64,000 bases of DNA from Escherichia phage JEP8. Shown piece by piece: positions 27,850-56,262 of the stretch (its first letter is position 1; each line of letters opens with the position of its first letter). The translations under genes and the position numbers were made by a program. Where the stretch lies: the sequence record MT764208.1; one strand, 5' to 3'. The notes under the pieces were generated by a model. That model was not told the origin of the DNA and searched no databases. It saw nothing but the letters and a program-made list of their open reading frames with translations.

Positions 27850-27878
27850 AGTATAAAACTAGTCCCCGTTTGAGTCAA
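27850..27878 (-). promoter_or_regulatory. sigma70-type promoter (TTGACT-N17-TATACT) within a stem-loop, upstream of the ART paralog
   Basis: read on minus strand; overlaps inverted repeat ACGGGGCTAGT…ACTAGTCCCCGT; approximate. Confidence 0.45.
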
Positions 27879-27894
27879 CCATTATTTCTTAAAA

Positions 27895-29946
27895 TTACAT
27901 TTTAAATTTATCTGGCATTGCGTCTACAGATACCAGATCAGCGATAAGCTGACGTAGAGTTGCCTTATCTGCTTTCTTACGTTCGGTTTTAGCTTCGCTA
28001 ATGAAGCTGGAGAAAGACAGGTCAGAAGCAGGTTTAATAACACCTTCACGGATGAATGCATCACCGTCTGCGATCATCTCGCCAGATTCTTGTAATGCTG
28101 CCAGTTCATTTTTGTTCATAATATGTGCCTCAATGTAATAAGTTTCTTGTGAATCCGTCGATGCCGTAGCACGAGTTACCGTATCAAAGGATAACACAAC
28201 ACCGCGAGGAAGTAAAATCTCGCATTCTTTGTAAGCAAATGCTTTGTTACCTACTGGCAATACAGGGATGTTTTCCGCGCCAGCAATGGAGAAAGCAACA
28301 TTAGCGCCACCTTCACCGCGAGAGCCAGCCATAGAATCTACACCAGCAACGGCACTAGCCACGTTTGCATTCCAGCCGCCAAAAATGTTAGGTGCAAGGG
28401 AAGTGCTCACATAGTTTTTAAAGTAAAACGCTTTTTGCTTACGTGCAGTTTCCCACATTTGCGACCGGAAGTCCATACCACGATACAGAATAGTACCAGG
28501 ATCAAGTTTAACACCATAGTTAGAGAAGGCATTATCCAGTGCATCGCACATCTTGACCAATTCTTCTGGATCTGCGATTCCCTCAAACTCTTCCAGCTTA
28601 CGATCAGTTAGGAAGTTGTTCATATTGATGTATGCTGCATCGGCATATTCGCTCAACACAAAACCTTCCGCGCCCGGCAGATCAAGATCAATATCTGCCA
28701 TCATTTCACCCATGTTGCTAGCAATTGCTTCAAACATACCGGACGCAACATTACGAAGGGCATCGGTTTTAATCTGGGTGATATGACTACGCAGCATTTC
28801 AGCTTTTACATCTGCTGGCATAGACTGGTCTACTCGATCCATTGCCAGGGCGGTGATCTTGTTTTCAAATACTTCCTCGCTCATGATTTCTTTTAAGCGT
28901 TTGATTGATGCTGCGATAACTTCCGCAGACAACGGATCATATTGATCCTGAACTTTTACCAGTTCGCTTACTGCGTATTTTGCATCGGCTTCGCTTTCAA
29001 AAATAGTACGCATGAAACCATAGCGAGTGATAATATCACTTGTCCAGTCATTCAGAGAACGGGCGGTTGAACGTTCTAAGGCTTGACGGTCAATCAGAGT
29101 ATTAAACTGTTTCTTAGGTTCTGCTTCGGTGATATCTTCTTCCGGTTTAAGATTAATTTTTTCTGGATGATTCACGTAGTCGCTGTTATAGGTCGCTTGA
29201 GTTTTCAGCATTTCTTCTTTAGTCAAACGAGATTTAGCCGCTACGCGTTGTTCTGCTTCCGCGTTTCGTTCTTCTTCTGACACAAGACTAGCCGCATACG
29301 CCTCATCTTTAGTCAGAGATTCACCAGTAGCCTTAGATACCCAGCGATCACCTAAATCACTTTCTACTTTAGTGAACAAGGATTCATCAAGTTTAATCCC
29401 TTTAATCTTATCAATCGCCATCCCGCGACGCTTGACAACAACTAAAGCGATCTTTTTGCTGGTCATTACTTCCTGCTGGAATACTTCAAACTTCGGTGTA
29501 CGACGCACCAAACGCTCTATAACGCGCTTAACCAGTTCGGTCTTACCTTTCATGCGGGATACGTTAAAACGGAACATAACAGCGTCTAATTGCGCTTTAC
29601 GGGCTGTTTCCATAACCACATCAAAAGCACTTGCCATAACTGCAATCGGGTTATCGCCTAGACCATTTTTAAGCTGTACAATACGACCGCTTTTGTTCAT
29701 TTCGCACAGTACAACATGTGCGGTTTTGTCACCCATACGAATGATTTTAGGTGTTTTGTTGGTGAAGTTACAAAGACGGACAATCACATCTTTATCGCGT
29801 GTCTGTACTGCAAAAAGCTGTTTAGGATTCTGCTTAGGCTTTAAGCACTGTACCGGAGCAATACTGCCAAAGTTTTCTTCCTCTTCCGTCAACAGCCATT
29901 TCTCGAAAGATTCAATCATTAGATCGTCGATTTCTAAGTTAAACAT
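27895..29946 (-). CDS. alt: Alt ADP-ribosyltransferase (packaged RNAP-modifying enzyme)
   Basis: 683 aa (T4 Alt is 682 aa); conserved ART motifs; located after gene 54 as in T4. Confidence 0.9.
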   Translation of the reverse strand: MFNLEIDDLMIESFEKWLLTEEEENFGSIAPVQCLKPKQNPKQLFAVQTRDKDVIVRLCNFTNKTPKIIRMGDKTAHVVLCEMNKSGRIVQLKNGLGDNPIAVMASAFDVVMETARKAQLDAVMFRFNVSRMKGKTELVKRVIERLVRRTPKFEVFQQEVMTSKKIALVVVKRRGMAIDKIKGIKLDESLFTKVESDLGDRWVSKATGESLTKDEAYAASLVSEEERNAEAEQRVAAKSRLTKEEMLKTQATYNSDYVNHPEKINLKPEEDITEAEPKKQFNTLIDRQALERSTARSLNDWTSDIITRYGFMRTIFESEADAKYAVSELVKVQDQYDPLSAEVIAASIKRLKEIMSEEVFENKITALAMDRVDQSMPADVKAEMLRSHITQIKTDALRNVASGMFEAIASNMGEMMADIDLDLPGAEGFVLSEYADAAYINMNNFLTDRKLEEFEGIADPEELVKMCDALDNAFSNYGVKLDPGTILYRGMDFRSQMWETARKQKAFYFKNYVSTSLAPNIFGGWNANVASAVAGVDSMAGSRGEGGANVAFSIAGAENIPVLPVGNKAFAYKECEILLPRGVVLSFDTVTRATASTDSQETYYIEAHIMNKNELAALQESGEMIADGDAFIREGVIKPASDLSFSSFISEAKTERKKADKATLRQLIADLVSVDAMPDKFKM

Positions 29947-29986
29947 TTTATATCCTCTAGTTGATAACCTATAAACCTATATTTAT

Positions 29987-30008
29987 GAAAAAGGGGCTTA
30001 ACGCCCCC
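29987..30008 (-). terminator. rho-independent terminator (minus strand)
   Basis: GGGGC-ttaac-GCCCC with plus-side A-run; the same hairpin recurs at about 34028-34048. Confidence 0.5.
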
Positions 30009-30013
30009 ATTTA

Positions 30014-30226
30014 TTATAATGCACCATCGAGCAATTGCTCTAATGTGTATCCTGAATAGTCTTTTTCAATCAGGATATATTTTCCTACTCGTTTAATACA
30101 ACCGCGCATTTCAACGTATTCTGCGTAGTTGATGGTACGGGTTGTTCCATCTTCCAGTAATGCAGTACCGATTTCGTTAATGCGGTCATAAGTTACGTCG
30201 GTAATGATGATTTCGATGTTAGCCAT
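30014..30226 (-). CDS. hypothetical protein (70 aa)
   Basis: small ORF behind a PeSL-type promoter; no motif recognised. Confidence 0.4.
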   Translation of the reverse strand: MANIEIIITDVTYDRINEIGTALLEDGTTRTINYAEYVEMRGCIKRVGKYILIEKDYSGYTLEQLLDGAL

Positions 30227-30262
30227 TTGATACTCCTTAGTAGTTCGTTTCGGTGTGGGTGT

Positions 30263-30291
30263 ATTATGCTATACACCCTCTGTTATGTCAA
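30263..30291 (-). promoter_or_regulatory. PeSL-type early promoter (TTGACA-N17-CATAAT; -10 embedded in hairpin GGGTGTAT…ATACACCC)
   Basis: minus-strand reading; followed by conserved leader …CCGAAACGAA…GGAG…ATG; approximate. Confidence 0.55.
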
Positions 30292-30297
30292 CAACTT

Positions 30298-30477
30298 TTA
30301 GAACATTTTTGAAATTAATTCTGCTTTGATTTCGCAGAGAACACCTAAAGATTTCTCGTCACCCGCTTTTGCTGCTTCTGATTGCATTTTTGAAATGGCT
30401 TCAATGTCAGTGCAATTATAAGCCGCTTGAACTTTAGCGATTGCGATGATTGCCGATTCGATGGTTAATTGTTTCAT
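30298..30477 (-). CDS. hypothetical protein (59 aa)
   Basis: ORF MKQLTIESAIIAIAKVQ… with RBS GGAG; not in ORF track; approximate. Confidence 0.3.
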   Translation of the reverse strand: MKQLTIESAIIAIAKVQAAYNCTDIEAISKMQSEAAKAGDEKSLGVLCEIKAELISKMF

Positions 30478-30509
30478 GTTTGATTCTCCTTTCGTTTCGG
30501 TATGGGTGT

Positions 30510-30538
30510 ATTATAGGGGATCGATGATCCCCTGTCAA
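30510..30538 (-). promoter_or_regulatory. PeSL-type early promoter (TTGACA-GGGGATCatcGATCCCC-TATAAT)
   Basis: perfect -35 and -10 hexamers with 17-nt palindromic spacer; approximate. Confidence 0.6.
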
Positions 30539-30546
30539 CAAATTTT

Positions 30547-31083
30547 TTAGTTATTTTTTAATTGCTCATCTTGCAATAGGGCAATCACATGCTGGCGATG
30601 TTCTTCCGATTGAGGCACACCGAAAAAGTTTGTTTTGTAGAAATACTCTAATCGGTCTTCTCGTGTGCTCTCTTCCATCATGATCGCGGGTAGTCCGAGA
30701 TTTCGGAAACGTCGCTTTTCTGCTGGCGTAAAATCACTGTAATACAACATAGAATCATCATTACAAGCAATGCTAAACTCATCCTTCATAAAGGAGAATA
30801 TTGCGTTTAAACGCTGTTTACCGTCCACGATTTCGATCTCATAGCGAGAGCCATCATCAATCTTAGCCATTGCGATAGCACCAACCGGAAAATCATTAAT
30901 CAGGTTTTCGATAAACATACGTTTGTTTTCGGTGTCCCATACTAAAGGACGCTGATAATCTGGGTTCATGTTGATATAGCCATCTTCTAACCATGCATCA
31001 TAAACAGAGATGACAAAGTTTTTAGTATTGGTATAGTAACGGCGTTTAGGCGTTAAACGGCGTTTAGGCGTTAAACGGTTCAT
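30547..31083 (-). CDS. DUF262 / ParB-like nuclease-domain protein
   Basis: start placed at ATG preceded by AGGAG (MNRLTPKRR…); hallmark motifs …NPDYQRPLVW… and …EIVDGKQRLNAIF… (DGQQR-like); lacks any C-terminal HNH/DUF1524 module. Confidence 0.65.
   Translation of the reverse strand: MNRLTPKRRLTPKRRYYTNTKNFVISVYDAWLEDGYINMNPDYQRPLVWDTENKRMFIENLINDFPVGAIAMAKIDDGSRYEIEIVDGKQRLNAIFSFMKDEFSIACNDDSMLYYSDFTPAEKRRFRNLGLPAIMMEESTREDRLEYFYKTNFFGVPQSEEHRQHVIALLQDEQLKNN
31041..31076. repeat. exact 18-bp tandem duplication (GGCGTTTAGGCGTTAAAC x2) inside the DUF262 gene
   Basis: in-frame; encodes duplicated peptide LTPKRR-LTPKRR at the protein N-terminus. Confidence 0.8.
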
Positions 31084-31084
31084 G

Positions 31085-31414
31085 TTATAGTCTCCTGAAT
31101 GGATCATCACGTAAATCAATATCTTTTAAGAACTCATCCCATGAATGGCGGATGTTGTTCTTAATTCTCCAGATAAGAGCAGGGATTGAACGCTCTCCCA
31201 TCTGGAAGTATGGATCATATGATCCGTATGCCCAATATGCTACTACAATTCCACAATCAGCGCAATAGTATTCTATTTCACTTGCTGGCGACCAAAGTCC
31301 ATCAATATGATCGGTGATCTTGCTTTCGATGTTATGGCTATGACAATCAGGGCAACGGATGCAATGACCTTGTTTATCGTAATTTGACGTTAGCGAATAC
31401 TTAAACAATCTCAT
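31085..31414 (-). CDS. zinc-ribbon protein (two CxxC pairs)
   Basis: 109 aa; …CIRCPDCHSH…CADCG…; translationally coupled (TAATG) to the upstream methyltransferase-like gene. Confidence 0.45.
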   Translation of the reverse strand: MRLFKYSLTSNYDKQGHCIRCPDCHSHNIESKITDHIDGLWSPASEIEYYCADCGIVVAYWAYGSYDPYFQMGERSIPALIWRIKNNIRHSWDEFLKDIDLRDDPFRRL

Positions 31415-32130
31415 TATAGATCCTTATTTGCTTCAAATACTGCCTTTGCGAATCCTCGCGGGGTAAGTGACCTTATAGTCTTTGTTCTGGTTCCTTTCCC
31501 GCCTAGCTTAGAATGCTGTTTACTGTACCCTTTATTAATCTGCAACGGTTTCTTTTCTGGCATTATAAAGCCTTGTCCGGTCCATAAGCAAGTCTTTTTC
31601 GGGTACATATCACGGGCGGCAATATACTCAGGAAACGTAGGATGCTTATCATCTTCCGGCAAATAACCGCCATATTCCCACGGATGGAACATGTAATCAG
31701 GCTTACGCCACATGCTAGAGATAACGCTTACAGGATTCTCTATCATGTAGGGAACTCCGAGCCATTCACCCAAATAAGCGGTTATTTTAGCTGCCCGTAC
31801 ATCATGAACTTGAATCAATGGTCCTTGTTCTCGTTTCTTTCGTTCAAAGTGCGCAGCGCCACTAACAGCTAAATTGGTGCACGGTGGGAATGCAAAGATA
31901 ATATCCGGTTTCCCCCATTCAAGGTCCATTGCTCTTTCCAGCCAGTTCAAATCAATCCAGGTGTTTACATAGGTAATGTTTGGATGTTCAAATCTGGTAT
32001 TATACTTTTTGTATGTACCGTGGTCGGCGTCATCCGCATTAAAGCAGACTACCTTATGACCTGCTTTAGCCCATTCTAGCCCCATTATCCCCGATCCGTC
32101 AAAGTTGCAGAATATTAATTTTTGTTTCAT
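31414..32130 (-). CDS. C5-cytosine methyltransferase-like protein, truncated (catalytic motifs I, IV, VI only)
   Basis: 238 aa; motif I FCNFDGSGIMG, motif IV PDIIFAFPPCTNLAVSG (PC Cys), motif VI YMIENPVSV (ENV-like); colinear with the M.HhaI N-terminal half; no target-recognition domain or motifs IX/X visible. Confidence 0.6.
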   Translation of the reverse strand: MKQKLIFCNFDGSGIMGLEWAKAGHKVVCFNADDADHGTYKKYNTRFEHPNITYVNTWIDLNWLERAMDLEWGKPDIIFAFPPCTNLAVSGAAHFERKKREQGPLIQVHDVRAAKITAYLGEWLGVPYMIENPVSVISSMWRKPDYMFHPWEYGGYLPEDDKHPTFPEYIAARDMYPKKTCLWTGQGFIMPEKKPLQINKGYSKQHSKLGGKGTRTKTIRSLTPRGFAKAVFEANKDL

Positions 32131-32372
32131 ATACGACCCTTTAACCCAGCACAGATTTTAGTCGGTTCTTTACCGTGCCACATTAAGTAAAGTCCGTTAA
32201 TGCGACCTTGTTTTGTGTGTGATTCTTTTCTGATCTTCTTATAGTGTCGTGCTTCCTCAACCGATTGTTTAGAATACCAATCATAAAGGAAGAGGCACAA
32301 AGGCCAACCATTAGCGGCCTTAATGCAGTTATTAAGAAATTCCTTATTGCGTTTAATTAATTTTCTTTTCAC
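32127..32372 (-). CDS. hypothetical protein (81 aa)
   Basis: basic small ORF overlapping neighbours by 4 nt on both sides (operon member). Confidence 0.35.
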   Translation of the reverse strand: MKRKLIKRNKEFLNNCIKAANGWPLCLFLYDWYSKQSVEEARHYKKIRKESHTKQGRINGLYLMWHGKEPTKICAGLKGRI

Positions 32373-32620
32373 GCTGCCCCCATTGGTTTGATAGTAACAG
32401 AATCTAAAAGACCTTTGTTAGCCAGTTCGCGGCAAGTTTTCAGATCCGCAACTTCCCAGCCAGCCGCAATCAGGTTATCAATCAGGCTGTTAGCAACTTC
32501 TTCGCTCATGAAAGAGCACTGTTTGCCGATGGTGTAGCGTACACGCTGTAATTTCAGTTTACGGAAGCCTTTAACGTTCAGGTCTTTAGCGATTTTCTTT
32601 GCGGTTTCGATGTTAGCCAT
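32369..32620 (-). CDS. hypothetical protein (83 aa), first gene of cassette
   Basis: ORF directly downstream of a PeSL-type promoter. Confidence 0.4.
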   Translation of the reverse strand: MANIETAKKIAKDLNVKGFRKLKLQRVRYTIGKQCSFMSEEVANSLIDNLIAAGWEVADLKTCRELANKGLLDSVTIKPMGAA

Positions 32621-32660
32621 TGTTTGATTCTCCTAAGTGGTATCTCGTCTTGATGGTTGT

Positions 32661-32689
32661 ATTGTAGGGGAGTTATCCTCCCCTGTCAA
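32661..32689 (-). promoter_or_regulatory. PeSL-type early promoter (TTGACA-GGGGAGgataaCTCCCC-TACAAT)
   Basis: minus-strand; palindromic 17-nt spacer; approximate. Confidence 0.55.
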
Positions 32690-32703
32690 CACTTTTTATA
32701 AAA

Positions 32704-32871
32704 TTATTTGTTAATTTCTGGTGCGTTGCTAGGATAGTAACCTTCTTTAACTCCGAGGTATTTCGCAACCATCCCTACAATCTTCTGTGCTACTACAATG
32801 TCAAATTTCAGATAATCTTCGCCGTGGGTTTCAATGATATATGCTTCACATGCTGCTTTAGTCTCGAACAT
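32704..32871 (-). CDS. hypothetical protein (55 aa), paralog of 35962-36129
   Basis: MFETKAACEAYIIETHGEDYLKFDIVVAQKIVGMVAKYLGVKEGYYPSNAPEINK; about 85-90% identical at DNA and protein level to the copy at 35962-36129. Confidence 0.45.
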   Translation of the reverse strand: MFETKAACEAYIIETHGEDYLKFDIVVAQKIVGMVAKYLGVKEGYYPSNAPEINK

Positions 32872-32904
32872 TTTGATTCTCCTATTTCGTTTCGGTATGT
32901 GTGT

Positions 32905-32933
32905 ATTATAGGGGATCTCCCGATCCCCGTCAA
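32905..32933 (-). promoter_or_regulatory. PeSL-type early promoter (TTGACG-GGGATCgggaGATCCCC-TATAAT)
   Basis: minus-strand; approximate. Confidence 0.55.
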
Positions 32934-32947
32934 CAACTTTTTTAAAA

Positions 32948-33229
32948 TTATTCGTGATTAGTTTCGATGTTGTGCATTTTGCACCAATTCAGCCAATCAC
33001 CCAGATCCTGATAGTTAATGCTTTTATCTGCTGCCATCGTTTTTGTCTTGATACCCATATGTGCGTTATGAGTAAGCATTTTTACAGTGAACTCAATTTT
33101 ATCGCCTTTAGCTTTAACATCAACCAGTTTGGTCCACTGGCTACCAGCGCCGCGAATGTTCATACCAACGATGTTTCCGATGTATGCTTCTTTGTTTTTC
33201 AGGATTTCGGTTGCTTTGATGAATTTCAT
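32948..33229 (-). CDS. hypothetical protein (93 aa)
   Basis: ORF behind PeSL promoter; no motif recognised. Confidence 0.4.
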   Translation of the reverse strand: MKFIKATEILKNKEAYIGNIVGMNIRGAGSQWTKLVDVKAKGDKIEFTVKMLTHNAHMGIKTKTMAADKSINYQDLGDWLNWCKMHNIETNHE

Positions 33230-33262
33230 TTTTGATTCTCCAGTTCGTTTCGGTATGGGTGT

Positions 33263-33291
33263 ATTATGCTATGTTCTTACTTTGGTGTCAA
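33263..33291 (-). promoter_or_regulatory. PeSL-type early promoter (TTGACA-N17-CATAAT)
   Basis: minus-strand; approximate. Confidence 0.5.
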
Positions 33292-33299
33292 CAACTTTT

Positions 33300-33569
33300 T
33301 TAGATATTTTCAGAAATAAATTTTAAAACTTGACGTAAATGTTTCTCATCTTTGATAGTCGCCGGAAGTTCTTCTTTTACTTCCTGTGCAAGATAGATAT
33401 TTCCGTTCCAAGTGAAAGATCCGTCTTCGTTTACGCGATAGCTGAACATCCACTCGCAATCATTTTCGATTTCATATACACACAGAAGAGTGTAATCTTC
33501 AAAGCTATTGAGTTCAAGGTCGAAGCCGTGACGTTTTGCAAAGTTGGTAGTGGTTTTAGTCAGTGCCAT
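33300..33569 (-). CDS. hypothetical protein (89 aa)
   Basis: ORF behind PeSL promoter. Confidence 0.4.
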   Translation of the reverse strand: MALTKTTTNFAKRHGFDLELNSFEDYTLLCVYEIENDCEWMFSYRVNEDGSFTWNGNIYLAQEVKEELPATIKDEKHLRQVLKFISENI

Positions 33570-33609
33570 TGTTTGATTCTCCTAAGTGGTATCTCGTTTC
33601 GATGTGTGT

Positions 33610-33639
33610 ATTATGCTATAGGCGTGATCTGGTGTCAAT
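33610..33639 (-). promoter_or_regulatory. PeSL-type early promoter (TTGACA-N18-CATAAT)
   Basis: minus-strand; approximate. Confidence 0.5.
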
Positions 33640-33663
33640 GCCTTTTTTAAAATTTTATGCAAT

Positions 33664-33688
33664 AAAAAAGCCGACACTAAGGTCGGCT
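33664..33688 (-). terminator. rho-independent terminator (minus strand)
   Basis: AGCCGAC-actaa-GGTCGGCT hairpin with plus-side A-run. Confidence 0.5.
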
Positions 33689-33695
33689 AATAAAA

Positions 33696-34004
33696 TCATT
33701 TAGACAAATAATCATTCTGTGCAATCCGGTCGGCGTATGCTGGTGTTATGTCAATCGCCAGCACTTTAACGCGTGCTTTCTTGCGACCTGGGTTTTCTCG
33801 TAACCAGTGCTCATGGCCGTGAACATTTTTATACTGCGATGCTTCTTCGAAGGTACGGATCGGACCTGGGTAATCAGCGTAAAGGATCTCTAGATCTTCG
33901 GTGATGTAAAAATATACATCGTAATTGCTGTTCTCTAGCTTAAGCAGAGACTTTCGGAACATTGGGAGATTTTCGCGGGTAAATTCAAAGATATTATCTT
34001 TCAT
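33696..34004 (-). CDS. HxHW-motif small protein, paralog family member a
   Basis: 102 aa; …YDVYFYITEDLEILYADY…NVHGHEHWLRENPGRKKARVKVLAIDITPAYAD…. Confidence 0.5.
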   Translation of the reverse strand: MKDNIFEFTRENLPMFRKSLLKLENSNYDVYFYITEDLEILYADYPGPIRTFEEASQYKNVHGHEHWLRENPGRKKARVKVLAIDITPAYADRIAQNDYLSK

Positions 34005-34027
34005 AGTATTATCCTCAATAGTTGGAT

Positions 34028-34048
34028 GAAAAGGGGCTTAACGCCCCG
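34028..34048 (-). terminator. rho-independent terminator (minus strand), repeat of the 29987 hairpin
   Basis: GGGGC-ttaac-GCCCC with A-run. Confidence 0.5.
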
Positions 34049-34052
34049 TATA

Positions 34053-34340
34053 TTAAAACAGTCCTTCCTGTACACCGTAGTAGAGTTCATCGCTGATAAT
34101 TTCATTAATGCGACGGTGTGCATATTCCTGATTTGCGAAGTTGTCAGCAAGTTCTACTTTAGTTTCGCCGTCATGAGTCCATTTAGTGATAACTTTACCA
34201 TCGGCAAATTTGAAGTTGAACTCTTTAGCTACCGCATCGCGTACCAGACGTGCGAACTTGTTGTTACGGATTGCATTATCGGTTTCGTGTGCAGCGTGAG
34301 CAAATTTGTTAACTTTCAGAGTGATGGTGATGTATGCCAT
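34053..34340 (-). CDS. hypothetical protein (95 aa), paralog of 37346-37657
   Basis: shares …ARLVRDAVAKEFNFKF… with …TLIREVRKALAKEFNTKI… in the 37346-37657 protein. Confidence 0.45.
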   Translation of the reverse strand: MAYITITLKVNKFAHAAHETDNAIRNNKFARLVRDAVAKEFNFKFADGKVITKWTHDGETKVELADNFANQEYAHRRINEIISDELYYGVQEGLF

Positions 34341-34386
34341 AATTTGATTCTCCTAGTTAGAAAGTGTATCTCGTTTCGATGGGTGT

Positions 34387-34415
34387 ATTATGCTATACAC
34401 CCGATCTTATGTCAA
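34387..34415 (-). promoter_or_regulatory. PeSL-type early promoter (TTGACA-N17-CATAAT; -10 inside hairpin GGGTGTAT…ATACACCC)
   Basis: minus-strand; approximate. Confidence 0.55.
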
Positions 34416-34421
34416 CACTTT

Positions 34422-48629: not shown

Positions 48630-50873
48630 TTACAGCTTGCAAGATGAGCACTCGCTAGAGTCTTCCGTACCATCTGCACCGTCGCGAACGTTCGCATAAT
48701 ACAGGGTTTTCAGACCGTAATATTGAGCAAACAACATATCATCTAAAACATCAGCAATATCGACTTTACCAGTCTTATAAGTGCTTGGATCGTAGGATGT
48801 ATTGGAACTAATCGCCTGATCCACAAACTTCTGCATGATCGCTGCCAGTGTCAGATAAGGCTTGTTACCTTTCTTGATCAGTGTCCAAAGCAGGTCAATA
48901 ACATCAGCATTATTCTCTACGTTCGGAATGACCTGATTAAATTGCCCTTCTTTCGATCCTTTAACCGATACAATCCCGCGAGGCGGTTCAATACCGTTTG
49001 TGCTGTTAGATACCTGAGAAGACGACTCACACGGCATCAGCGCCGAAAGTGTACTGTTACGAATGCCATATTTTTTCAGGTCTTCGCGCAGTTCTTCCCA
49101 ATCCATCTCATACACAGGATCAACCAGTTCATCTACTGTCTTTTTGTACCAGTCGATAGGAAGTTCACCGCGACCATAGCGTGTTTCGTGCATCAGTTCG
49201 CAAGCACCCTTCTCTTTAGCCAGTTGCACACTAGCCTTAATCAGAGCATATTGCAAGCGTTCAAACGTTTTATGCGTAAACTCGTTAGCGTCTTCATATG
49301 TGAAGAAATTATCTGCTAGATATGATGCAAAGTTAGTCACACCAACACCCAGAGAGCGACGTTTTTTGGCTGTCAGAGCTTGTTCTACAGGATAATCCTG
49401 GTAATCTAACAGGTTGTCAAGTGCACGCACCATAACCATAGCGATCCGCTCTACTTCTTCCATATTTTCGATATCAAAGTTTCCTAAAACATATGCTGCC
49501 AAAGTACATAGGCTGATCTCTGAATCATCACGACCCATCGGTTTAGTAGGCAGAGCAATTTCACAACACAGGTTAGATTGTTTAATCGGTGCTACATTAC
49601 GAATAAACGCCCCGTGATTGTTCATGTTGTCTGTGAACGTTGGGTAGATTCGACCAGTGTTAAAACGTTCAATTGCCACCGCTAAAAACAGGTCTTCGGC
49701 TTTAACACGAGTTTTACGAACACTCGGATCTTTTTCCAGTTTTTCGTAAAGCTGACGGAAACCTTCCTCATCTCGGAAGTATAGATCCCACAACAAGCCA
49801 CCTGCAACATCTGGACTAAACAGAGTAATGTAATCCCGTTTAAGGAATCGCTCTACCATCAGGTTATTAATCTGTACGCCGTAATCAAGATGACGAATGC
49901 GGTTATCTTCCACCCCCTTATTGTTCTTTAACACAATCAGACTTTCAAACTCTAAATGCCACATTGGGTAATAGAGAGTCGCCGCCCCGCCACGAATACC
50001 GCCTTGTGAGCATGACTTAACAGCAGTCTGAAAATGTTTCCAGAATGGGATAACGCCAGTATGACGAACTTCACCATGCCCGATCTTAGATCCTTCCGCG
50101 CGAATCATGCCAGCGTTGATACCGATACCAGCACGCTTGCTAATATACTTGATGATTGCATTTGCTGTTTCGTTGATGCCCTGCAATGAGTCATCACTTT
50201 CAATCACAACACACGAACTAAATTGGCGTGTTGGTGTACGCACACCTGCCATAATCGGAGTAGGCAGAGAGATTTGCTTATTCGCAACAGCATTATAAAA
50301 ATCAATCACATGTTCAAGTCGATTTTCTGTCTCTTCTTGATGCAAGCACATACCGATCAGCATATACGCAAATTGCGGTGTTTCGATGATTTTCTTAGTG
50401 CTGCGATCCTGAACAAGATATTTCTCTTTTAACTGCATAGCACCAGCATAGGTCATTTTAAAATCAAGTTTATGGTCGATGAATTTCTCCAGATATTCCA
50501 CTTCTTCACGGGAATACTTTTGTAGAATTTCACGATCATATTTTCCGGTTGCAATATTACGCTCAATATGGCTGTAAAAATCAATCGGTTGGAATTGACC
50601 GTATACTGATTTGCGAAGCGCGAACATTGCAAGGTTACTTGCTACATATTGATAATCTGGTGTTTCTACAGTAATGTTATCTGCGGCGACCTTAATCAAT
50701 ACTTTCTGGATATCATTGGTAGACATACCTTCTGTCAGAAGTGGTTCAACCATATCAAACAATTCATATGGATCAACGTTATGACCTTCGGCTGCCGCTT
50801 CCAGAATTTTCATTACTTTTTCTTTTTCAAACGGAACAGTCAGACCGGAAGACTTAACAACATTTTTAATCAT
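48630..50873 (-). CDS. nrdA: ribonucleotide reductase large subunit (alpha)
   Basis: 747 aa; class Ia RNR catalytic subunit with ATP-cone N-terminus and C-terminal Cys pair. Confidence 0.95.
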   Translation of the reverse strand: MIKNVVKSSGLTVPFEKEKVMKILEAAAEGHNVDPYELFDMVEPLLTEGMSTNDIQKVLIKVAADNITVETPDYQYVASNLAMFALRKSVYGQFQPIDFYSHIERNIATGKYDREILQKYSREEVEYLEKFIDHKLDFKMTYAGAMQLKEKYLVQDRSTKKIIETPQFAYMLIGMCLHQEETENRLEHVIDFYNAVANKQISLPTPIMAGVRTPTRQFSSCVVIESDDSLQGINETANAIIKYISKRAGIGINAGMIRAEGSKIGHGEVRHTGVIPFWKHFQTAVKSCSQGGIRGGAATLYYPMWHLEFESLIVLKNNKGVEDNRIRHLDYGVQINNLMVERFLKRDYITLFSPDVAGGLLWDLYFRDEEGFRQLYEKLEKDPSVRKTRVKAEDLFLAVAIERFNTGRIYPTFTDNMNNHGAFIRNVAPIKQSNLCCEIALPTKPMGRDDSEISLCTLAAYVLGNFDIENMEEVERIAMVMVRALDNLLDYQDYPVEQALTAKKRRSLGVGVTNFASYLADNFFTYEDANEFTHKTFERLQYALIKASVQLAKEKGACELMHETRYGRGELPIDWYKKTVDELVDPVYEMDWEELREDLKKYGIRNSTLSALMPCESSSQVSNSTNGIEPPRGIVSVKGSKEGQFNQVIPNVENNADVIDLLWTLIKKGNKPYLTLAAIMQKFVDQAISSNTSYDPSTYKTGKVDIADVLDDMLFAQYYGLKTLYYANVRDGADGTEDSSECSSCKL

Positions 50874-50920
50874 ATTACCTCACTTCATATTTTAGCAGGA
50901 ACAAGTTTATCCTCCATATT

Positions 50921-50944
50921 GGGGGCTTTCGCCCCCTTTTGTTT
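50921..50944 (+). terminator. plus-oriented intrinsic terminator-like hairpin between td and nrdA
   Basis: GGGGGC-tttc-GCCCCC followed by TTTTGTTT on the plus strand although flanking genes are on the minus strand. Confidence 0.4.
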
Positions 50945-52175
50945 ATACTGCCATTTGAGCGGTGATCGCTGGATGGCTTTGATAGTTGTGAATTTTAAAG
51001 TCTTTCGGAGTCTTTGTCAATACCTCATCTAAAGATTTAAATTCCGGCAACTCGATTGTTGGTTTATCAAACGGAACACGGCTTAACTGTTCCATAACTT
51101 GATCAAAATGGTTTTTGTAAATGTGAGTATCTCCACCAGAGAAAATCAGTTCTCCTACCTCAAGGTCACACATTTTAGCTATGATGTGAGTTAACAGCGC
51201 ATAGCTGGCGACGTTAAAGGGCAAGCCCAAAAAGCTGTCTACGCTTCGCTGAAACCACATACAAGACAGTTTACCCTCATTGACATAGAATTGCACGAAC
51301 GGATGACATACACCTAATACAGCATTATGTGTTCCTTGTACGTTCCATGAGTCAATGATGATACGTCGATCCGTTGGATTGTTTTTAATTTGTTCAATCA
51401 CGTTTTGTAACTGGTCTTCCCAAATCTTCGGGCGATAGACATATTCTTCATCGTCTTTAGTGCTCGATGTGTCTACGTCCATACTAGCAAAGATCGTGGT
51501 ATCGGGTGCTAAAATATCCCCACCCAGATAATCACTATCAAGCAGATAACCGAAATAACCATCATCTACCCATTCCTGGAATCCCCACAAGCAATATGCA
51601 TCATTAACAAAATTAGATTGAGTCTTCCAGTGATCTGCTACTAAGAATTGATTATATTCAGAATCAAACTCTTCATAACGCATACCACGCCAGATAGCAC
51701 ATAAACGGTCTTCTGTGTCGTTGGTTGGCGTAAAGTCTTCTACCCACGGGTGTTTAAATGTATGTGTATATTTGCTCTTAACGCGCTTAATTTTGATTTC
51801 ACCGTGTGGATGAATCGGTTTGCGTCGCCATGCCATACCATACATATTGCCAACATTATAGCCGTTGAATCGTAGCGGATTCTTTTCTTTCATATCAAGA
51901 CAGTTGCCGCGCCAAATGTCGAAGGCTTCTTCGTCAAACTGACCGCGTGTAATTTCCTGTAATCGACGGCGGTCAAGTGATCCCTCCATAAACCATAGCA
52001 ACTCGCCAATTACAGAGGCTGTAGCCATCTTTTTAGTGGTCAGTAATGGGAAACCCTTGCTTAAATCAATTCGCATCTCTGCGCCGAATTTAGAGAGCGT
52101 ACCTACCCCCGTGCGGTCTTCACGAGGCCAGCCATTATCAAGAACATCACGCAATAGTTTCAAATATTCTTTCAT
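50943..52175 (-). CDS. td: thymidylate synthase (ThyA/Td type) with a large internal insertion
   Basis: 410 aa; TS motifs …DRTGVGT…, …NPTDRRIIIDSWN…, catalytic …VCHPFVQFYV…, …FQRSVDSFLGLPFNVASYALL…; about 115 extra residues between the …MYGMAWRR… and …DQLQNVIEQIK… blocks. Confidence 0.9.
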   Translation of the reverse strand: MKEYLKLLRDVLDNGWPREDRTGVGTLSKFGAEMRIDLSKGFPLLTTKKMATASVIGELLWFMEGSLDRRRLQEITRGQFDEEAFDIWRGNCLDMKEKNPLRFNGYNVGNMYGMAWRRKPIHPHGEIKIKRVKSKYTHTFKHPWVEDFTPTNDTEDRLCAIWRGMRYEEFDSEYNQFLVADHWKTQSNFVNDAYCLWGFQEWVDDGYFGYLLDSDYLGGDILAPDTTIFASMDVDTSSTKDDEEYVYRPKIWEDQLQNVIEQIKNNPTDRRIIIDSWNVQGTHNAVLGVCHPFVQFYVNEGKLSCMWFQRSVDSFLGLPFNVASYALLTHIIAKMCDLEVGELIFSGGDTHIYKNHFDQVMEQLSRVPFDKPTIELPEFKSLDEVLTKTPKDFKIHNYQSHPAITAQMAV

Positions 52176-52416
52176 CCCACATCACCTTTTTCTTATTGAT
52201 TGCTTTCTTACGCAGTTTTGCTACTGTCTCGTCAATATTGATAAAGACAACGCCCGGATCGAATACAGTAACAGGTCTTGAAATGTCGCTATTTTCCTGT
52301 ACTGGAAGCCATGACGCTTGAGCTTCATCATAGAGATATTGTAAGCCGTAATAATCTACGGCTACTGCGTAGTTTTCACTGGTAGCCGTCCATAATTGAA
52401 TAATACTGATTTTCAT
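52147..52416 (-). CDS. hypothetical protein (about 89 aa)
   Basis: track ORF; start placed at internal Met MKISIIQLW…; overlaps td start. Confidence 0.3.
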   Translation of the reverse strand: MKISIIQLWTATSENYAVAVDYYGLQYLYDEAQASWLPVQENSDISRPVTVFDPGVVFINIDETVAKLRKKAINKKKVMWDERIFETIA

Positions 52417-52509
52417 TATTGTTCCCGTCCACAATGTAAACACCGACTACCAGCAAACATCAAAGATTCACCACAATGTTTGCACTCATAATCTGTCAGA
52501 ATTTTCATG

Positions 52510-53091
52510 TTACGCCTTCTTACGTTCTAAAATTTGTTCGCTGACCAGGTAATCATCAAGGAAGTAATTATGTTCTTCTTTTGTTGCAAAGTTAAAATAT
52601 AATTCCTGAATCATTTCCTTAGAGATTCCAACATCATGTTCAAATGGATCGTTGATCCCTGAACGTTGAACATACGTTAACACAATACGGTCCGCAAAGT
52701 CAACCGCTTTTTCAATCAGGGAAGGTCCACCGATAACACTTACCAAACCTTGCAATTTCTCTATGACTTCTAATAATTCCTTCAATCCACCATCATTAGT
52801 AATCGCGGTATACACATCAGGTTGTTCGCCGTTTTTTGCTTTCGGTGCTGGCTTACTGGTATCGGTACTAACAACCACATTCACACGACCTTCCAGTGCT
52901 TTAGGGAGACTTTCAAAGGTATTACGTCCCATTACAACCGCCGCAAGATCAACATCTCCCATAGTGCGCATTTTAAAGTTTTCCATGTCCTTTTTGATTG
53001 GACGACCCCACGGTAAACCGCCTTTAAAACCAAACGCCCAATTTTCATCTGACATTTTAGTGTCACCAATCGCAAATACACATTGAATCAT
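52510..53091 (-). CDS. frd: dihydrofolate reductase
   Basis: 193 aa; …GFKGGLPWGRPIKKDMENFK…VMGRNTFESLP… DHFR signature. Confidence 0.85.
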   Translation of the reverse strand: MIQCVFAIGDTKMSDENWAFGFKGGLPWGRPIKKDMENFKMRTMGDVDLAAVVMGRNTFESLPKALEGRVNVVVSTDTSKPAPKAKNGEQPDVYTAITNDGGLKELLEVIEKLQGLVSVIGGPSLIEKAVDFADRIVLTYVQRSGINDPFEHDVGISKEMIQELYFNFATKEEHNYFLDDYLVSEQILERKKA

Positions 53092-53106
53092 AATATAAAT
53101 CTCCCA

Positions 53107-53436
53107 TCAAATCAGTTTGAAATAGTTTTCGTTTACATTTTCTTCTGTGATTGCTGTCTTAAATTCTTGACCGTTATCCGGTGTGATGAAATAACGGTCA
53201 GAATAATCACGAAAACGTTTTAAGTGAGATACCCCAACATTAACACCATTTTCCCAAAAACGAAAGGTAATCATTTTTGGTTCATATCGATAGTCGCTGG
53301 TTAACACAGTACCATCCCCGCGACGGGCTTCATAAACCGTAATACATTCACGATTGGCGGCTTTTAGGCATTCTTCAATAGTGCCGCACGAGATAATACT
53401 TACTTTTTCATCTACGATTTGTTCTACAGTCCACAT
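53107..53436 (-). CDS. hypothetical protein (109 aa)
   Basis: start placed at MWTVEQIVDEK… after the PeSL leader. Confidence 0.4.
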   Translation of the reverse strand: MWTVEQIVDEKVSIISCGTIEECLKAANRECITVYEARRGDGTVLTSDYRYEPKMITFRFWENGVNVGVSHLKRFRDYSDRYFITPDNGQEFKTAITEENVNENYFKLI

Positions 53437-53467
53437 AATATAATCCTCTCTTTGTTTCGATATGTGC

Positions 53468-53495
53468 ATTATACACTATTGCGTTACGCTGTCAA
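53468..53495 (-). promoter_or_regulatory. PeSL-type early promoter (TTGACA-N16-TATAAT)
   Basis: minus-strand; approximate. Confidence 0.5.
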
Positions 53496-55112
53496 CTCTT
53501 TTTCAAAAGTTTTTACGATATACATGATAGTGCTCAATTCAGACGGCGCTACTGTTTCTGTGTAGCCATCCGGCATATCTTCTTTTGAGATATAGGAAGT
53601 TTTACCTTTCATCGCTTCCTTGATCTTGTTCTCTAAGTCTAAGATCTTTTGACCGTCTTGTAAAGTCAATTCATAAAAGATCTCGTGGTTGAATTTGGAA
53701 AGTCGAGATTGACCTCCAATTCGTTCTTTTGTTGTTCTATTGGTTATTCCAAATTTAACGCCAACGAATATTTTTTCTTTTATTAGTTTTTGAATATACA
53801 ATACTCCTTTTTTTAAGGTATTATATCCATATTGTGCGCATTTAGGACAACGAGTTCCTTTCTGAAAGTTTGTTATTGTCGGTGTAAATTCATGGCCTTC
53901 ACTACACACCAAATTTAACTTTGTAGACACACCGTTCCATTCTCCAATAAATCCATTAAATATGATATTTTCTTTTTCGAAAATTGGTTTAAGTCTTTCA
54001 AGATATTCTTCTTTTGATAATGCATAATTATTTGCACATTTAGGACAACGAGTTCCATTCTGAAAACTGGATATGATAGGAGTGAAATTGTGGCCTTCAC
54101 AACACACCAAATCCAATTTTGTTACGTTACCTTTCCACTCACCAACGATTCCATTACAGGTTATATTTTCTTTAATAAATATCGGTGCTAATTTTTCGAA
54201 ATATTCTTCCTTTGGAATCAATTTACGTTCTCTTAATTTAAGAGCTTTACATTTCGGACAGCGGCGACCTTGTTGAAAAACTGCTATGCTCGGGGTGTAA
54301 TTGTGTTTTTCATTACACACCAAATTCAGCCTAGTTCTGCTACCTTTCCACTCACCAACGATTCCATTACAGGTTATATTTTCTTCAACGAAGATTGGTT
54401 TTAATCTTTTAAAATATTCTTCTTTTGATATTTTTCTACTGTTTCTCCAGTTGATAATACCGCAGGTCGAACACCTATTACCGGATTGAAAACCGTTTAC
54501 AGTCGGTGTAAATTTATGGCCTTCACTACACAATAAATTCATTTTTGTTGTGCTTCCGTTCCATTCTCCAATAAATCCATTAAATACGATATTTTCTTTT
54601 TCGAAAATTGGTTTAAGTCTTTCAAGATATTCTTCTTTTGATAGTAATTTCAATTCTCTTAATTTAAGAGCTTTACATTTAGGACAACGACTTCCGACCT
54701 GAAATGCTGTTATCGTCGGAGTAAATTCATGATCCTCACAACATGTTAAGTTTAGTTTTGTGTGCACGCCTTTCCATTCTCCGACGAATCCATTAAACTT
54801 TATATTTTCCTCAATAAAGATTGGTTTAAGTTTTTTATAATATTCTTCTTTTGATAGGGCATAATTATTTGCGCATCTAGAGCATCGTTTACCTTTTTGA
54901 AAATCTGATATTCTTGGTGTAAATTCATGTCCTTCACAACACACCAAACCCAATTTTGTTACGTTACCTTTCCACTCACCAACAAATCCATTAAATACGA
55001 TATTTTCTTTTTCGAAAATTGGTTTAAGTCTTTCGTAATATTCCAATGGGCTAATCGAGTTATAATTTTTCTTAACCCATTCAATCTCATGCGCCTTACG
55101 TACCAACATCAT
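53484..55112 (-). CDS. tandem-repeat zinc-ribbon protein (six repeats of about 70 aa; homing-endonuclease-associated-repeat-like)
   Basis: start placed at MMLVRKAHEIEW…; six repeats of consensus EEY.ERLKPIFEKENI.FNGF.GEWKG..TKLNL.C.EGHEFTP.I..FQ.G.RCPKC; C-terminal 110 aa non-repetitive. Confidence 0.5.
   Translation of the reverse strand: MMLVRKAHEIEWVKKNYNSISPLEYYERLKPIFEKENIVFNGFVGEWKGNVTKLGLVCCEGHEFTPRISDFQKGKRCSRCANNYALSKEEYYKKLKPIFIEENIKFNGFVGEWKGVHTKLNLTCCEDHEFTPTITAFQVGSRCPKCKALKLRELKLLSKEEYLERLKPIFEKENIVFNGFIGEWNGSTTKMNLLCSEGHKFTPTVNGFQSGNRCSTCGIINWRNSRKISKEEYFKRLKPIFVEENITCNGIVGEWKGSRTRLNLVCNEKHNYTPSIAVFQQGRRCPKCKALKLRERKLIPKEEYFEKLAPIFIKENITCNGIVGEWKGNVTKLDLVCCEGHNFTPIISSFQNGTRCPKCANNYALSKEEYLERLKPIFEKENIIFNGFIGEWNGVSTKLNLVCSEGHEFTPTITNFQKGTRCPKCAQYGYNTLKKGVLYIQKLIKEKIFVGVKFGITNRTTKERIGGQSRLSKFNHEIFYELTLQDGQKILDLENKIKEAMKGKTSYISKEDMPDGYTETVAPSELSTIMYIVKTFEKELTA
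53600..54990 (-). repeat. about 210-bp tandem coding repeats (x6) within the zinc-ribbon repeat gene
   Basis: repeated DNA segments correspond to the protein repeats; boundaries approximate. Confidence 0.6.
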
Positions 55113-55139
55113 TTTATCCTCCGTTGTTTCGATGTGTGC

Positions 55140-55167
55140 ATTATACATTACATCATCAGCATGTCAA
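55140..55167 (-). promoter_or_regulatory. PeSL-type early promoter (TTGACA-N16-TATAAT) upstream of the repeat protein gene
   Basis: minus-strand; approximate. Confidence 0.5.
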
Positions 55168-55193
55168 CACCTTTTTCATAAAATTTTAGGCAA

Positions 55194-55222
55194 TAAAAAA
55201 GCCTCCCCGAAGGGAGGCTTTA
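55194..55222 (-). terminator. rho-independent terminator after gene 32 (possibly bidirectional)
   Basis: AGCCTCCC-cgaa-GGGAGGCT flanked by AAAAAAA and TTT. Confidence 0.7.
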
Positions 55223-55229
55223 AAATTCA

Positions 55230-56198
55230 TTACATCGCTAACAGAGAATCCAGGTCATCCAGATCAGAAGCGGAGGAAGTACCGCCACCCAGGTCCAGAG
55301 ATGCCATCAGATCATCAGCGGAAGAATCTAACGCCGTGCTAGCTGCGTTAATACCAACTACAGTGCTAGCTGCGGTAGTACCAGCGTCGAATGCATTCAT
55401 CTGTGCGTCAAAATCATCAAGCTGGCTGTTAATCGCTGCCGCAGCACTGGAAGCCGCAGAACCAGCTACCATAGAAACGCCCATAGTTTTCTTAAATTTG
55501 GTTTCCAGTTCATCGAACGGTTTAAACTGGCTAGGCGCTACAATCTCACTCAGATCAACCATGTTTTCCATCAGATATTTCTGATATGCTTCGTCTTCAA
55601 TTTTCGGAAGCTGTGATTGCTGCATGAAACGAGAATCATCATAGTTCTGGTGTTTATCAACCTTCTTAGCTTTCAGGAGGAAGTTAGCACCGGAGAACAC
55701 ACAAGTTACATCTACCGGAACTTCGCCCATGTCGGTATTCACGTTCACCATTGCAACGATCTTATCATAAATTTTCTGACCGAAGCGGAATTTGAATACC
55801 TTACCTTCATTTTCTGGTGCTTGAGGATCTTTCAGTACCAGAATATTTGCGTAGTAAGACGCTTTACGCTTAATCAGTTGCCATTCTGTTTTATCGGTAT
55901 TGTACAGATCTTTTTCGTTAATATATTTGCACACAGGGCAAGAATCAAAATCACCGTGGGTGCTGGAGCAGTTTTCCCAATACCATTTGCCATTAACTTT
56001 GAAGGAATGGTTTACCAGTTTCACAATCGGCAGACCGTCTTCTGTCTTAGACGGCAGGAAGCGAATCAGGGCTTCACCGTTACCTGCTGCATCAGTCTTA
56101 ATCTTCCACTCTTTCGGATCTTCTTTGGAGAAACCGTTGCCACCTTTCAGTGCGGCCAGTTGAGCTTGCAGTTTGGAAGAATCTTGGCGTTTAAACAT
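55230..56198 (-). CDS. 32: single-stranded DNA-binding protein (gp32-like)
   Basis: start placed at ATG (MFKRQDSS…) after AAGGA; zinc site …[14 protein letters not shown]… and acidic/Ser-rich C-terminus match T4 gp32. Confidence 0.93.
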
Positions 56199-56234
56199 AT
56201 TCACTATTCCTTCTTTTGATTAATTTACTAGACT

Positions 56235-56262
56235 ATTATACAGATTTAAATTTACTTGTCAA
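56235..56262 (-). promoter_or_regulatory. sigma70-consensus promoter (TTGACA-N16-TATAAT) upstream of gene 32
   Basis: minus-strand; perfect hexamers; approximate. Confidence 0.55.

Follow-up and report, generated by a model that had tools for sequence, protein, structure and literature searches.

Genomic context and copy census

A 64,000-nucleotide (nt) stretch of Escherichia phage JEP8 (MT764208.1), hereafter the window, carries at junctions between its minus-strand genes repeated copies of a module that joins a promoter, in most copies a hairpin, and a ribosome-binding leader, and these modules are very probably the promoter-early stem-loop (PeSL) cassettes of RB49/phi1-type phages (Krischvirus). 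Positions 30000-38000 and 44000-58000 of the window match 58-68 phage records, the top ones, with 95-98% identity across the full length, being those of ELT4, Ec_Makalu_001, kvi, GEC-3S, phi1, ECD7 and RB49 (all Straboviridae, genus Krischvirus), and the window is a Krischvirus (RB49/phi1-type) phage genome. Gene order on the minus strand parallels that of phi1/RB49 from open reading frame (ORF) 183 to gene 59, beginning with an Alt paralogue and alt, continuing through small ORFs 185-210, an HNH endonuclease and a ligase to rnlA, denA and ORF225-229, and passing through nrdB, nrdA, td, frd, ORF239, ORF240 and gene 32 to gene 59. PeSLs were first defined in RB49 and phi1 (PMC2839356), and the modules of the window occupy the positions of phi1/RB49 ORF185-240 (hyperplastic regions).

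The exact pattern TTGACA-N15-19-TATAAT occurs 10 times in the window against an expectation of 0.12. A profile built with nhmmer from the 10 obvious copies returned the same 10 and 8 more (E 1e-9 to 1e-4), and a profile rebuilt from these 18 sequences recovered the identical 18, with no others at E<1e-3. All 18 copies lie on the minus strand, co-oriented with the genes and each directly upstream of a start codon; they are 75-100 nt long, span 30.2-55.2 kb and are named here by the first base of the -35 hexamer (30291, 30538, 32689, 32933, 33291, 33638, 34415, 35958, 36192, 37337, 37731, 45572, 45797, 46078, 46357, 48621, 53495 and 55167). The original prediction, made from the sequence of the window, had placed about twenty copies here; the module is real at those places and far above chance, and the count resolves into 18 copies plus two non-homologous promoters, since the sites at 27.8 and 56.2 kb (27878 and 56262) are strong promoters that the profile did not detect and whose flanks and leaders are unrelated to the module. 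Its statement that the module precedes nearly every small gene was overstated: a module is present at 18 of 55 gene junctions, and in the 30.0-37.7 kb region, which has about 25 genes, it precedes 11. The cassette downstream is a single gene for ten of the modules and a unit of 2-14 genes for the other eight. The products of nine single-gene cassettes matched no Pfam family, and the GEC-3S and G2248 records carry promoter or terminator annotations at module sites.

The consensus module begins with the stop codon of the upstream gene, followed by AAAAAAGTTG, TTGACA, 17 nt and TATAAT, TATACT, CATAAT or TAAGAT, and continues with ACAC(A/C)CAT(AC)CGAAACGA, 0-20 variable nt and (T)AGGAGAATCAAA(N0-2)ATG. 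The A-rich tract upstream of the -35, which holds that stop codon, is of the AAAAAGTTG type. All 18 promoters score 10-12 of 12, with spacers of 16-17 nt, and GGAG or GAGG followed by ATG is found in 18/18 copies, the distance from -10 to ATG being 24-46 nt. If transcription begins at the conserved CAT, on its A, the leaders contain about 50% A and have a mean folding energy of -1.1 kcal/mol, compared with -5.0 kcal/mol for length-matched random segments. After this unstructured A-rich leader the module ends before the ATG in GGAGAATCAAA, which has 11 exact occurrences in the window, every one of them inside a module.

Similarity among the copies extends well beyond the hexamers. Pairwise identity over the 20 nt upstream of the -35 is 0.54 among modules and 0.31-0.36 with ten other sigma70-like sites of the window, and over the 20 nt past the -10 it is 0.58, compared with 0.27-0.29 for the control sites; self-BLAST aligns copies over 50-115 nt at 73-92% identity. 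Outside the hexamers the copies thus resemble one another about twice as closely as control promoters do, and they are homologous repeats and not independent promoters, which was the outcome on which the original prediction had made itself depend.

A blastn search in 'distant' mode with one module returned 58 records, all of them Escherichia/Shigella Krischvirus-type phages with matches at 4-10 places each. In IMG/VR, 18 stretches match CGAAACGA-N2-20-GGAGAATCAAA; nine of these hold modules by profile search and derive from three contigs (164,706 bp, 150 kb and 6 kb), and the other nine hold none, bar a marginal plus-strand match (E 4e-4), and look like chance. A degenerate leader pattern, CATMSVAAACRA, was poorly designed and gave no matches. 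Neither blastn nor the IMG/VR pattern and profile search found the module family outside Krischvirus records.

Identity with published PeSLs

Comparison with the RB49 and phi1 elements described by Arbiol, Comeau, Kutateladze, Adamia and Krisch (2010, Genome Biol Evol 2:140, PMC2839356) showed that the 37731 module is identical to RB49 PeSL211/210 at 87/87 positions and the 36192 module to RB49 PeSL206/205 at 68/68, and that the 32933 module matches phi1 PeSL193/191 at 74/76. The PeSL reading of the original prediction is borne out: the window is such a phage, and two of its copies are base-for-base those tested in RB49. The element has thus already been described in exactly this phage group, with experiments on identical sequences. 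Promoter strength, the terminator activity of a class A hairpin (see below) and mini-circles were all shown by others on identical or orthologous sequences (PMC2839356). The PeSL211/210 stem-loop, placed between a strong promoter and lacZ, cut expression about as much as rrnB T1, and the PeSL206/205 promoter gave ~13,000 Miller units (PMC2839356). Most clones of PeSL193/192 and PeSL206/205 had -35 or -10 down-mutations, from which the authors concluded that the native promoters are too strong to clone, and inverse PCR recovered circular ORF192 and ORF210 cassettes (mini-circles) with chimeric, sequenced PeSLs (PMC2839356). According to a 2014 follow-up, PeSLs of the RB49/phi1 type combine TTGACA-N17-TATAAT and a stem of the form G(n)-loop-C(n) (PMC4122927), and the modules of the window fit that description.

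Between these elements and the present modules there is no essential difference. They share the genus, the region ORF185-ORF240 and the architecture (stop codon in an A-rich tract, TTGACA-N17-TATAAT, G-run/C-run stem-loop, Shine-Dalgarno sequence and ATG), and the ORF192 and ORF210 cassette polymorphisms are common to both. The present genome has its own cassette set, without ORF192, ORF195/196 and ORF211 and with ORF186, 191, 210 and 226, and the counting differs: 18 sequence-homologous copies in 28 kb here, against 52 per genome under the broader architectural definition of Arbiol et al. The PeSLs of T4/PST and KVP40/nt-1 (Comeau, Arbiol and Krisch 2014, PMC4122927) are likewise composite promoter/stem-loop repeats of hyperplastic regions with differential ORFs, but they are analogues and not homologues, with the consensus promoters TTTACW..TAYWAT and TTGYVH..TAWWAT and other stem sequences. 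Looser parallels exist outside these phages. Integron cassettes are also small promoter-served units that can take circular form and insert at a repeated site; here, by contrast, there is no integrase and no attC/attI, exchange is apparently by general homologous recombination, and each cassette has its own promoter. Morons of lambdoid phages, reportedly described by Hendrix et al. in 2000, resemble the present cassettes as genes with their own promoter and terminator, as do Botstein-Campbell linkers as conserved junctions serving as exchange points. The regulatory sequences of morons are neither conserved repeats nor regarded as mediators of movement, whereas here the repeated module is the crossover substrate.

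Hairpin classes and evidence of selection

Internal hairpins are present in 13 of the 18 copies and fall into three classes; three further copies have a canonical terminator upstream, and two have neither (33291 and 53495). Class A lies in the spacer (GGGGATCnnnGATCCCC, GGGGATC-nnn-GATCCCC) in five copies, namely those before ORF210 (37658-37753; -35 37731-37726, -10 TATACT 37708-37703, hairpin GGGGATcacgtATCCCC, -10.5 kcal/mol, nhmmer E 1e-17), before ORF209-206 (37275-37359; -35 37337, GGGGATCaccGATCCCC, -13.2 kcal/mol), before ORF205 (36130-36214; -35 36192, perfect TTGACA-17-TATAAT, GGGGATCggtGATCCCC), before ORF191 (32872-32955; -35 TTGACG 32933, GGGGATCgggaGATCCCC shifted by 1 nt, -14.3 kcal/mol) and before ORF186 (30478-30560; -35 30538, perfect consensus promoter, GGGGATCatcGATCCCC). 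Two variants of this class are AGGGGAG-gauaa-CUCCCCU before ORF190-187 (32621-32711; -35 32689, AGGGGAGgauaaCTCCCCT, -19.6 kcal/mol, z -5.9) and GCGGGGA-gaaa-UCCCCGC in the spacer of a diverged module before ORF233-nrdB (48562-48643; -35 TTGACG 48621, GCGGGGAgaaaTCCCCGC, -16.7 kcal/mol, nhmmer E 8e-5). Class B, GGGTGTAT-agcata-ATACACCC, spans the -10 CATAAT in two copies, which share the hairpin GGGTGTATagcataATACACCC and precede ORF198-197 (34341-34437; -35 34415, -13.8 kcal/mol, z -3.8) and ORF185 (30227-30313; -35 30291, -13.3 kcal/mol, z -3.6). Class C, GGGAGTA-gtaaga-TACTCCC across a TAAGAT/TAATAT -10, occurs in four copies: before ORF204-199 (35897-35980; -35 35958, -10 TAAGAT, hairpin GGGAGTAgtaagaTACTCCC overlapping the -10, -12.2 kcal/mol, z -3.7), before ORF227 (46017-46100; -35 46078, GGGGGTA/TACTCCC with a G.U pair), before ORF226 (45731-45819; -35 45797, a weakened hairpin of -7.6 kcal/mol) and before ORF225 and the downstream denA-to-ORF212 block (45511-45594; -35 45572). 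The original prediction had recognised two subfamilies, the GC-rich spacer palindrome and the repeat spanning the -10, both of which are present, and had missed the third, class C.

The five copies without an internal hairpin are those before ORF194 (33570-33660; -35 33638, where folding gives -0.2 kcal/mol), ORF193 (33230-33313; -35 33291, a PeSL-type module with no hairpin whatever) and ORF228 (46305-46379; -35 46357), and two diverged modules, before ORF239-frd-td-nrdA (53437-53517; -35 53495) and before a CapR-repeat gene at the ORF240 position (55113-55189; -35 55167, Shine-Dalgarno sequence GGAGGATAAAA). Canonical hairpin-plus-T-run terminators stand just upstream of three of them, which is one of the five arrangements of Arbiol et al.: at 33669-33688 directly upstream of the 33638 module (the 'stem-loop in AT-rich region' arrangement), at 46372-46395 adjoining the 46357 module (AAAGTCGCC...GGCGACTTT and a T-run), and at 55198-55221 directly upstream of the 55167 module (10-bp stem).

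Folding energies of the internal hairpins range from -7.6 to -19.6 kcal/mol, and 10 of the 13 were equalled or bettered by <=5 of 200 shuffles. Pairing was assessed in copies from the window and nine relatives, which together gave 102 distinct 40-nt promoter cores; a perfect 7-bp stem is present in 49/102 of these, where chance would give roughly 0.5%. One stem pair of class C is GC in 9, AU in 7 and GU in 2 sequences and is never unpaired, with a covariation score reached by 1/500 column shuffles, and in the phi1/GEC-3S orthologue of the 34415 copy GGGGATAT...ATATCCCC replaces GGGTGTAT...ATACACCC, amounting to two compensatory pairs. The hairpin is a frequent, selectively maintained component of the module, and not an obligatory one. 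No Rfam 15 covariance model matched at the gathering threshold anywhere in the window.

Several observations weigh against an obligatory hairpin and against canonical termination. Two copies have neither a hairpin nor a nearby terminator, so the hairpin is facultative. Across all CATAAT-type copies the covariation of the class B helix is not significant (63% of cells paired, against 61% after shuffling), and in the 33638, 33291 and 46357 lineages this helix was lost or never present. No T-run follows the class A, B or C hairpins, and a terminator scan of the minus strand flagged no internal hairpin, only the separate upstream ones at 33688, 46395 and 55221 qualifying, so that the internal hairpins are not canonical intrinsic terminators. 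The published terminator experiment covers one class A hairpin only; for classes B and C we infer terminator activity.

The position of the hairpins bears on how they might otherwise act. They lie upstream of the predicted transcription start and should therefore be missing from the module's own transcript and be transcribed only in read-through RNA from upstream. This, together with the missing T-runs, would suit a post-transcriptional role, in which the hairpins are processing sites or 3'-end stabilisers in read-through RNA that set the half-life of the upstream cassette's mRNA. The excess of sense-strand G.U over A.C wobble pairs (8 to 3) leans the same way, but it is small, its variants are non-independent and it is suggestive only. 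The class A hairpin cut lacZ expression as strongly as rrnB T1, in an assay blind to termination versus cleavage and decay, and stems of 7-8 bp are short for RNase III; we regard such a role as unlikely overall, though it may hold for classes B and C. Strand asymmetry of wobble pairs was also considered as a discriminator between RNA- and DNA-level function and was dropped, the variants being too few and non-independent.

A DNA-level role does not sit easily with the stems themselves. The palindromes might be duplex operators for a dimeric phage or host protein, either an early-promoter repressor or a recombination helper recognising GGGG...CCCC. This would fit the strong conservation, from genome to genome, of the class A half-sites GGGGATC/GATCCCC around a variable loop, as well as their location between -35 and -10, from which a bound protein would keep RNA polymerase out; a GGGG...CCCC-binding protein is also a speculation of Arbiol et al. 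(PMC2839356). However, the window holds three unrelated stems in differing positions and registers (in the spacer, over the -10 and upstream of the -35), which have in common only G-run/C-run pairing, rather than the single conserved inverted repeat at a fixed position that marks a palindromic operator. Compensatory changes and G.U intermediates preserve pairing and not sequence, and five homologous copies lack any palindrome. The unrelated stems and compensatory changes argue against a single sequence-specific operator, no candidate protein was identified, and an operator function appears very unlikely. Neither the operator nor the RNA-processing idea, both raised in the original prediction, is needed.

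Two observations on short words in the window stand apart from these readings. Control by Dam through the two GATC sites in class A stems was considered and dropped, GATC not being enriched (352 observed against a Markov expectation of 343). GGCC is strongly depleted across the whole window (32 observed, 71-110 expected), and CTAG (100 against 123-233) and GGATCC (0 against 9.6) are low too, which suggests restriction-site avoidance; GATC is not depleted.

Gain, loss and crossover of cassettes

Breakpoints of gene presence and absence were mapped by comparing window positions 26001-59000 with nine relatives (phi1, RB49, a second RB49 assembly, GEC-3S, JSE, LF73P4, Brandy, JK32 and G2248), using unique 13-mer anchors, their longest increasing subsequence and X-drop extension. 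Chained blastn high-scoring pairs proved unsuitable, as they run through or jump between paralogous modules and mis-assign junctions. Eight positions have both ends in modules, two events have one end in a module and three have none; the first figure becomes 10 events if the two insertions at 32933 and a JSE deletion (53475-55124) are counted separately. Both ends lie in modules for the insertions at the 32933 module, where RB49 carries ORF192 (+544 nt) and JSE another gene (+391 nt), for an ORF195/196-type insertion of +458 to +490 nt at 33638, and for ORF211 (+357 nt) at 37731. Losses of the same kind removed ORF186 (30267-30491/30544), ORF191 (32671-32897), ORF210 (37347-37695) and ORF226 (45526-45751/45792), and the ORF240 position was replaced or lost (53475-55116). 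One end lies in a module for a JSE replacement (34436-35224) and, with its end at 55083-55112, for an allelic replacement within the ORF240 gene. Events away from modules comprise the loss of ORF189.1 (32129-32356, with a 16-nt overlap), an insertion of +286 nt at 37077 and a homing-endonuclease replacement (48032-48393).

Against the junction frequencies in these relatives, 4/5 insertions fall at module junctions (p=0.04) and 5/6 single-cassette losses or replacements have modules on both flanks (p=0.001), so that the original prediction's proposed check, whether breakpoints fall at the elements, came out in its favour. The deletions leave 19-47 nt that match both flanking copies, and alignments show single chimeric modules with the crossover inside the module; in JK32, for example, ORF185 is driven by a module whose A-rich tract, -35 and hairpin (class A) come from the ORF186 copy and whose leader is that of the ORF185 copy. 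Brandy and JK32 are both without the ORF210 cassette, precisely one of those found in mini-circle form by Arbiol et al.

Two points temper this enrichment. Apart from the module junctions, this region, whose genes are dispensable, has no intergenic spaces of any size (median 70 against 4 nt), and survivorship may therefore account for part of the enrichment; the events are also few, and all are drawn from related genomes. Taken to its limit, this would leave the module without any recombination role, its similarity reflecting the descent of duplicated cassettes and selection for a strong promoter and ribosome-binding site, and indels being found there since only such rearrangements are viable. 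Paralogous cassettes do exist: those of ORF191 and ORF205 share 85% DNA identity from the gene's stop codon to the module's A-rich tract (32703-32940 and 35961-36199). Length of the intergenic spaces apart, the three events without modules, at 16-nt microhomology or plain junctions, also fit. Against such an account stand crossovers within shared module sequence that leave chimeric modules, different genes inserted at one and the same module (32933, in RB49 and JSE) and mini-circles with sequenced chimeric PeSLs (PMC2839356). Pure descent with survivorship is contradicted by the intra-module crossovers and the published mini-circles, and we consider it most improbable.

Some further features of the cassettes were seen alongside this. 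The homologues of ORF190 and ORF185 (32605-32620 and 30211-30226, minus strand), otherwise unrelated, share the start ATGGCTAACATCGAAA (MANIE) right after their modules, and therefore either module homology or a past crossover reaches ~16 nt into coding sequence. JSE, JK32 and G2248 lack the ORF189.1 homologue, which was removed by a deletion between a pair of 16-nt near-repeats located at gene boundaries within an operon. Besides ORF191 and ORF205, whose duplication took in their upstream modules, several more of the small ORFs in 33.7-37.1 kb look like paralogue families, e.g. a MSKFK(E/D)Y pair at 35012-35445.

The ribosome-binding end as a possible RegB site

RegB of the T4 type cuts early mRNAs in the Shine-Dalgarno GGAG, and in conjunction with S1 its target is an 11-nt single-stranded GGAGRAYARAA with a T4 optimum of GGAGAAUAAAA (Durand et al. 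2006, PMC1702504). In RB49, which has a divergent RegB of its own, the small number of mapped sites obey the same rule. In the window, GGAGRAYMRAA occurs 12 times against 0.59 expected, every time in a module. The 11 copies of GGAGAATCAAA match 10/11 consensus positions and depart from the T4 optimum solely at position 8, and one copy, GGAGGATAAAA, is a full match. Like RegB/S1 sites, which are GGAG-initial, single-stranded and located in early-gene Shine-Dalgarno sequences followed by an A-rich tract, the modules present GGAGAAUCAAA in an unstructured leader; they differ in having C for A at position 8 in 11 copies, and the RB49 enzyme is a divergent homologue. On this resemblance we tentatively suggest that the module's 3' end, GGAGAAUCAAA, could be a RegB/S1 endoribonuclease site, i.e. 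a timed mRNA shut-off (kill) site, a reading we hold to be possible though somewhat short of even. GGAG is in any case a good Shine-Dalgarno sequence, and common descent could account for the 11-mer. RegB goes unmentioned in the PeSL paper (PMC2839356).

Besides this sequence, the window has another conserved motif of translation initiation, GAGGA-N5-6-YTATG (in its typical form TGAGGATAATATTATG), with 8 occurrences where 0.40 are expected (minus strand: 34002-34016, 34698-34713, 35702-35716, 36489-36503, 36697-36711, 41573-41587, 48559-48573 and 53434-53448). Most of these lie before genes in the interior of multi-gene cassettes, and the motif differs from the GGAGAATCAAA-ATG that module-headed genes carry.

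Neighbouring promoters and the ORF240-position gene

The two strong promoters at the edges of the region merit separate description. That of the Alt paralogue, TTGACT-17-TATACT (27818-27900, minus strand), lies inside a 13-bp hairpin followed by a T-run (-18.9 kcal/mol, z -4.4) and has PeSL architecture with non-homologous sequence. Within 27838-27881 on the minus strand the -10 box falls inside the hairpin, and thus the alt terminator and the next gene's promoter are combined in the same 44 nt; TTTTCTGTT follows the hairpin at 27878 in the sequence, although it is absent from the terminator scan list. The gene 32 early promoter (56199-56284, minus strand), a perfect TTGACA-16-TATAAT, has no hairpin, is non-homologous to the module and is annotated as 'early RB49 promoter' in NC_005066. 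Two more perfect TTGACA-16-TATAAT promoters lie outside the range originally considered, at 13865-13924 and 14449-14476 on the minus strand; their A-rich tracts upstream and their starts of the GCAT(T)C(A/G)A type are faintly module-like (nhmmer E 0.06 for 13924-13865), and they may be diverged members of the family in another plastic region.

The gene at the ORF240 position (53484-55112, minus strand), labelled 'endonuclease' in phi1/RB49, encodes a 542-amino-acid protein with six CapR homology/treble-clef zinc-finger repeats (Pfam PF21817, E 7.5e-32), and its DNA contains tandem units of ~198-213 nt at 68-77% identity. The repeat number appears variable, because gene length differs in every relative compared; JSE lacks the gene.

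Proposed mechanism and implications

In the mechanism we propose, the host's unmodified RNA polymerase would fire a near-consensus sigma70 promoter, with its A-rich upstream tract, as soon as infection has begun. To judge from the sequence, the start point is probably the A of the conserved CAT ~7 nt past the -10. An unstructured A-rich leader of 17-39 nt would follow, closing with the Shine-Dalgarno GGAG and the ATG of a small function-unassigned gene. The G-run/C-run hairpin, whether it sits in the spacer, covers the -10 or directly precedes the -35, would serve in read-through RNA as a terminator or attenuator insulating one cassette from the next. With near-identical repeats of 75-100 nt in the same orientation at many junctions, the modules would at the same time be a substrate for the phage's efficient homologous recombination, and a crossover between copies would delete, duplicate, insert or swap 'module plus gene' cassettes while keeping transcription units intact.

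If the 11-mer is indeed a RegB/S1 site, the PeSL would be a three-part on/insulate/off cassette, uniting a strong promoter for early expression with a barrier to read-through and a site at which the mRNA is killed on time, and any gene placed behind it would automatically receive an 'immediate-early, then silenced' programme. RegB/S1 selection, beyond ribosome binding, would then explain why the 11-mer is the best-conserved part of the leader, and the 11-mer would supply part of the homology used in shuffling.

No new kind of element is described here; what is new is confined to the confirmation, from later genomes, of cassette excision at the predicted sites, the recognition in this stretch of a third class of hairpin, the finding that the hairpin is facultative, and the resemblance of the ribosome-binding end to a RegB site. 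The prediction made from two genomes in 2010 holds in later-sequenced genomes, in which the ORF186, ORF191, ORF210 and ORF226 cassettes are each cleanly missing from some relatives and chimeric modules remain. For annotation, the modules reliably mark early transcription units and cassette boundaries in Krischvirus genomes. PeSLs are among the few concrete mechanisms proposed for the turnover of accessory genes in large lytic phages, a turnover in which the transcription programme is spared.

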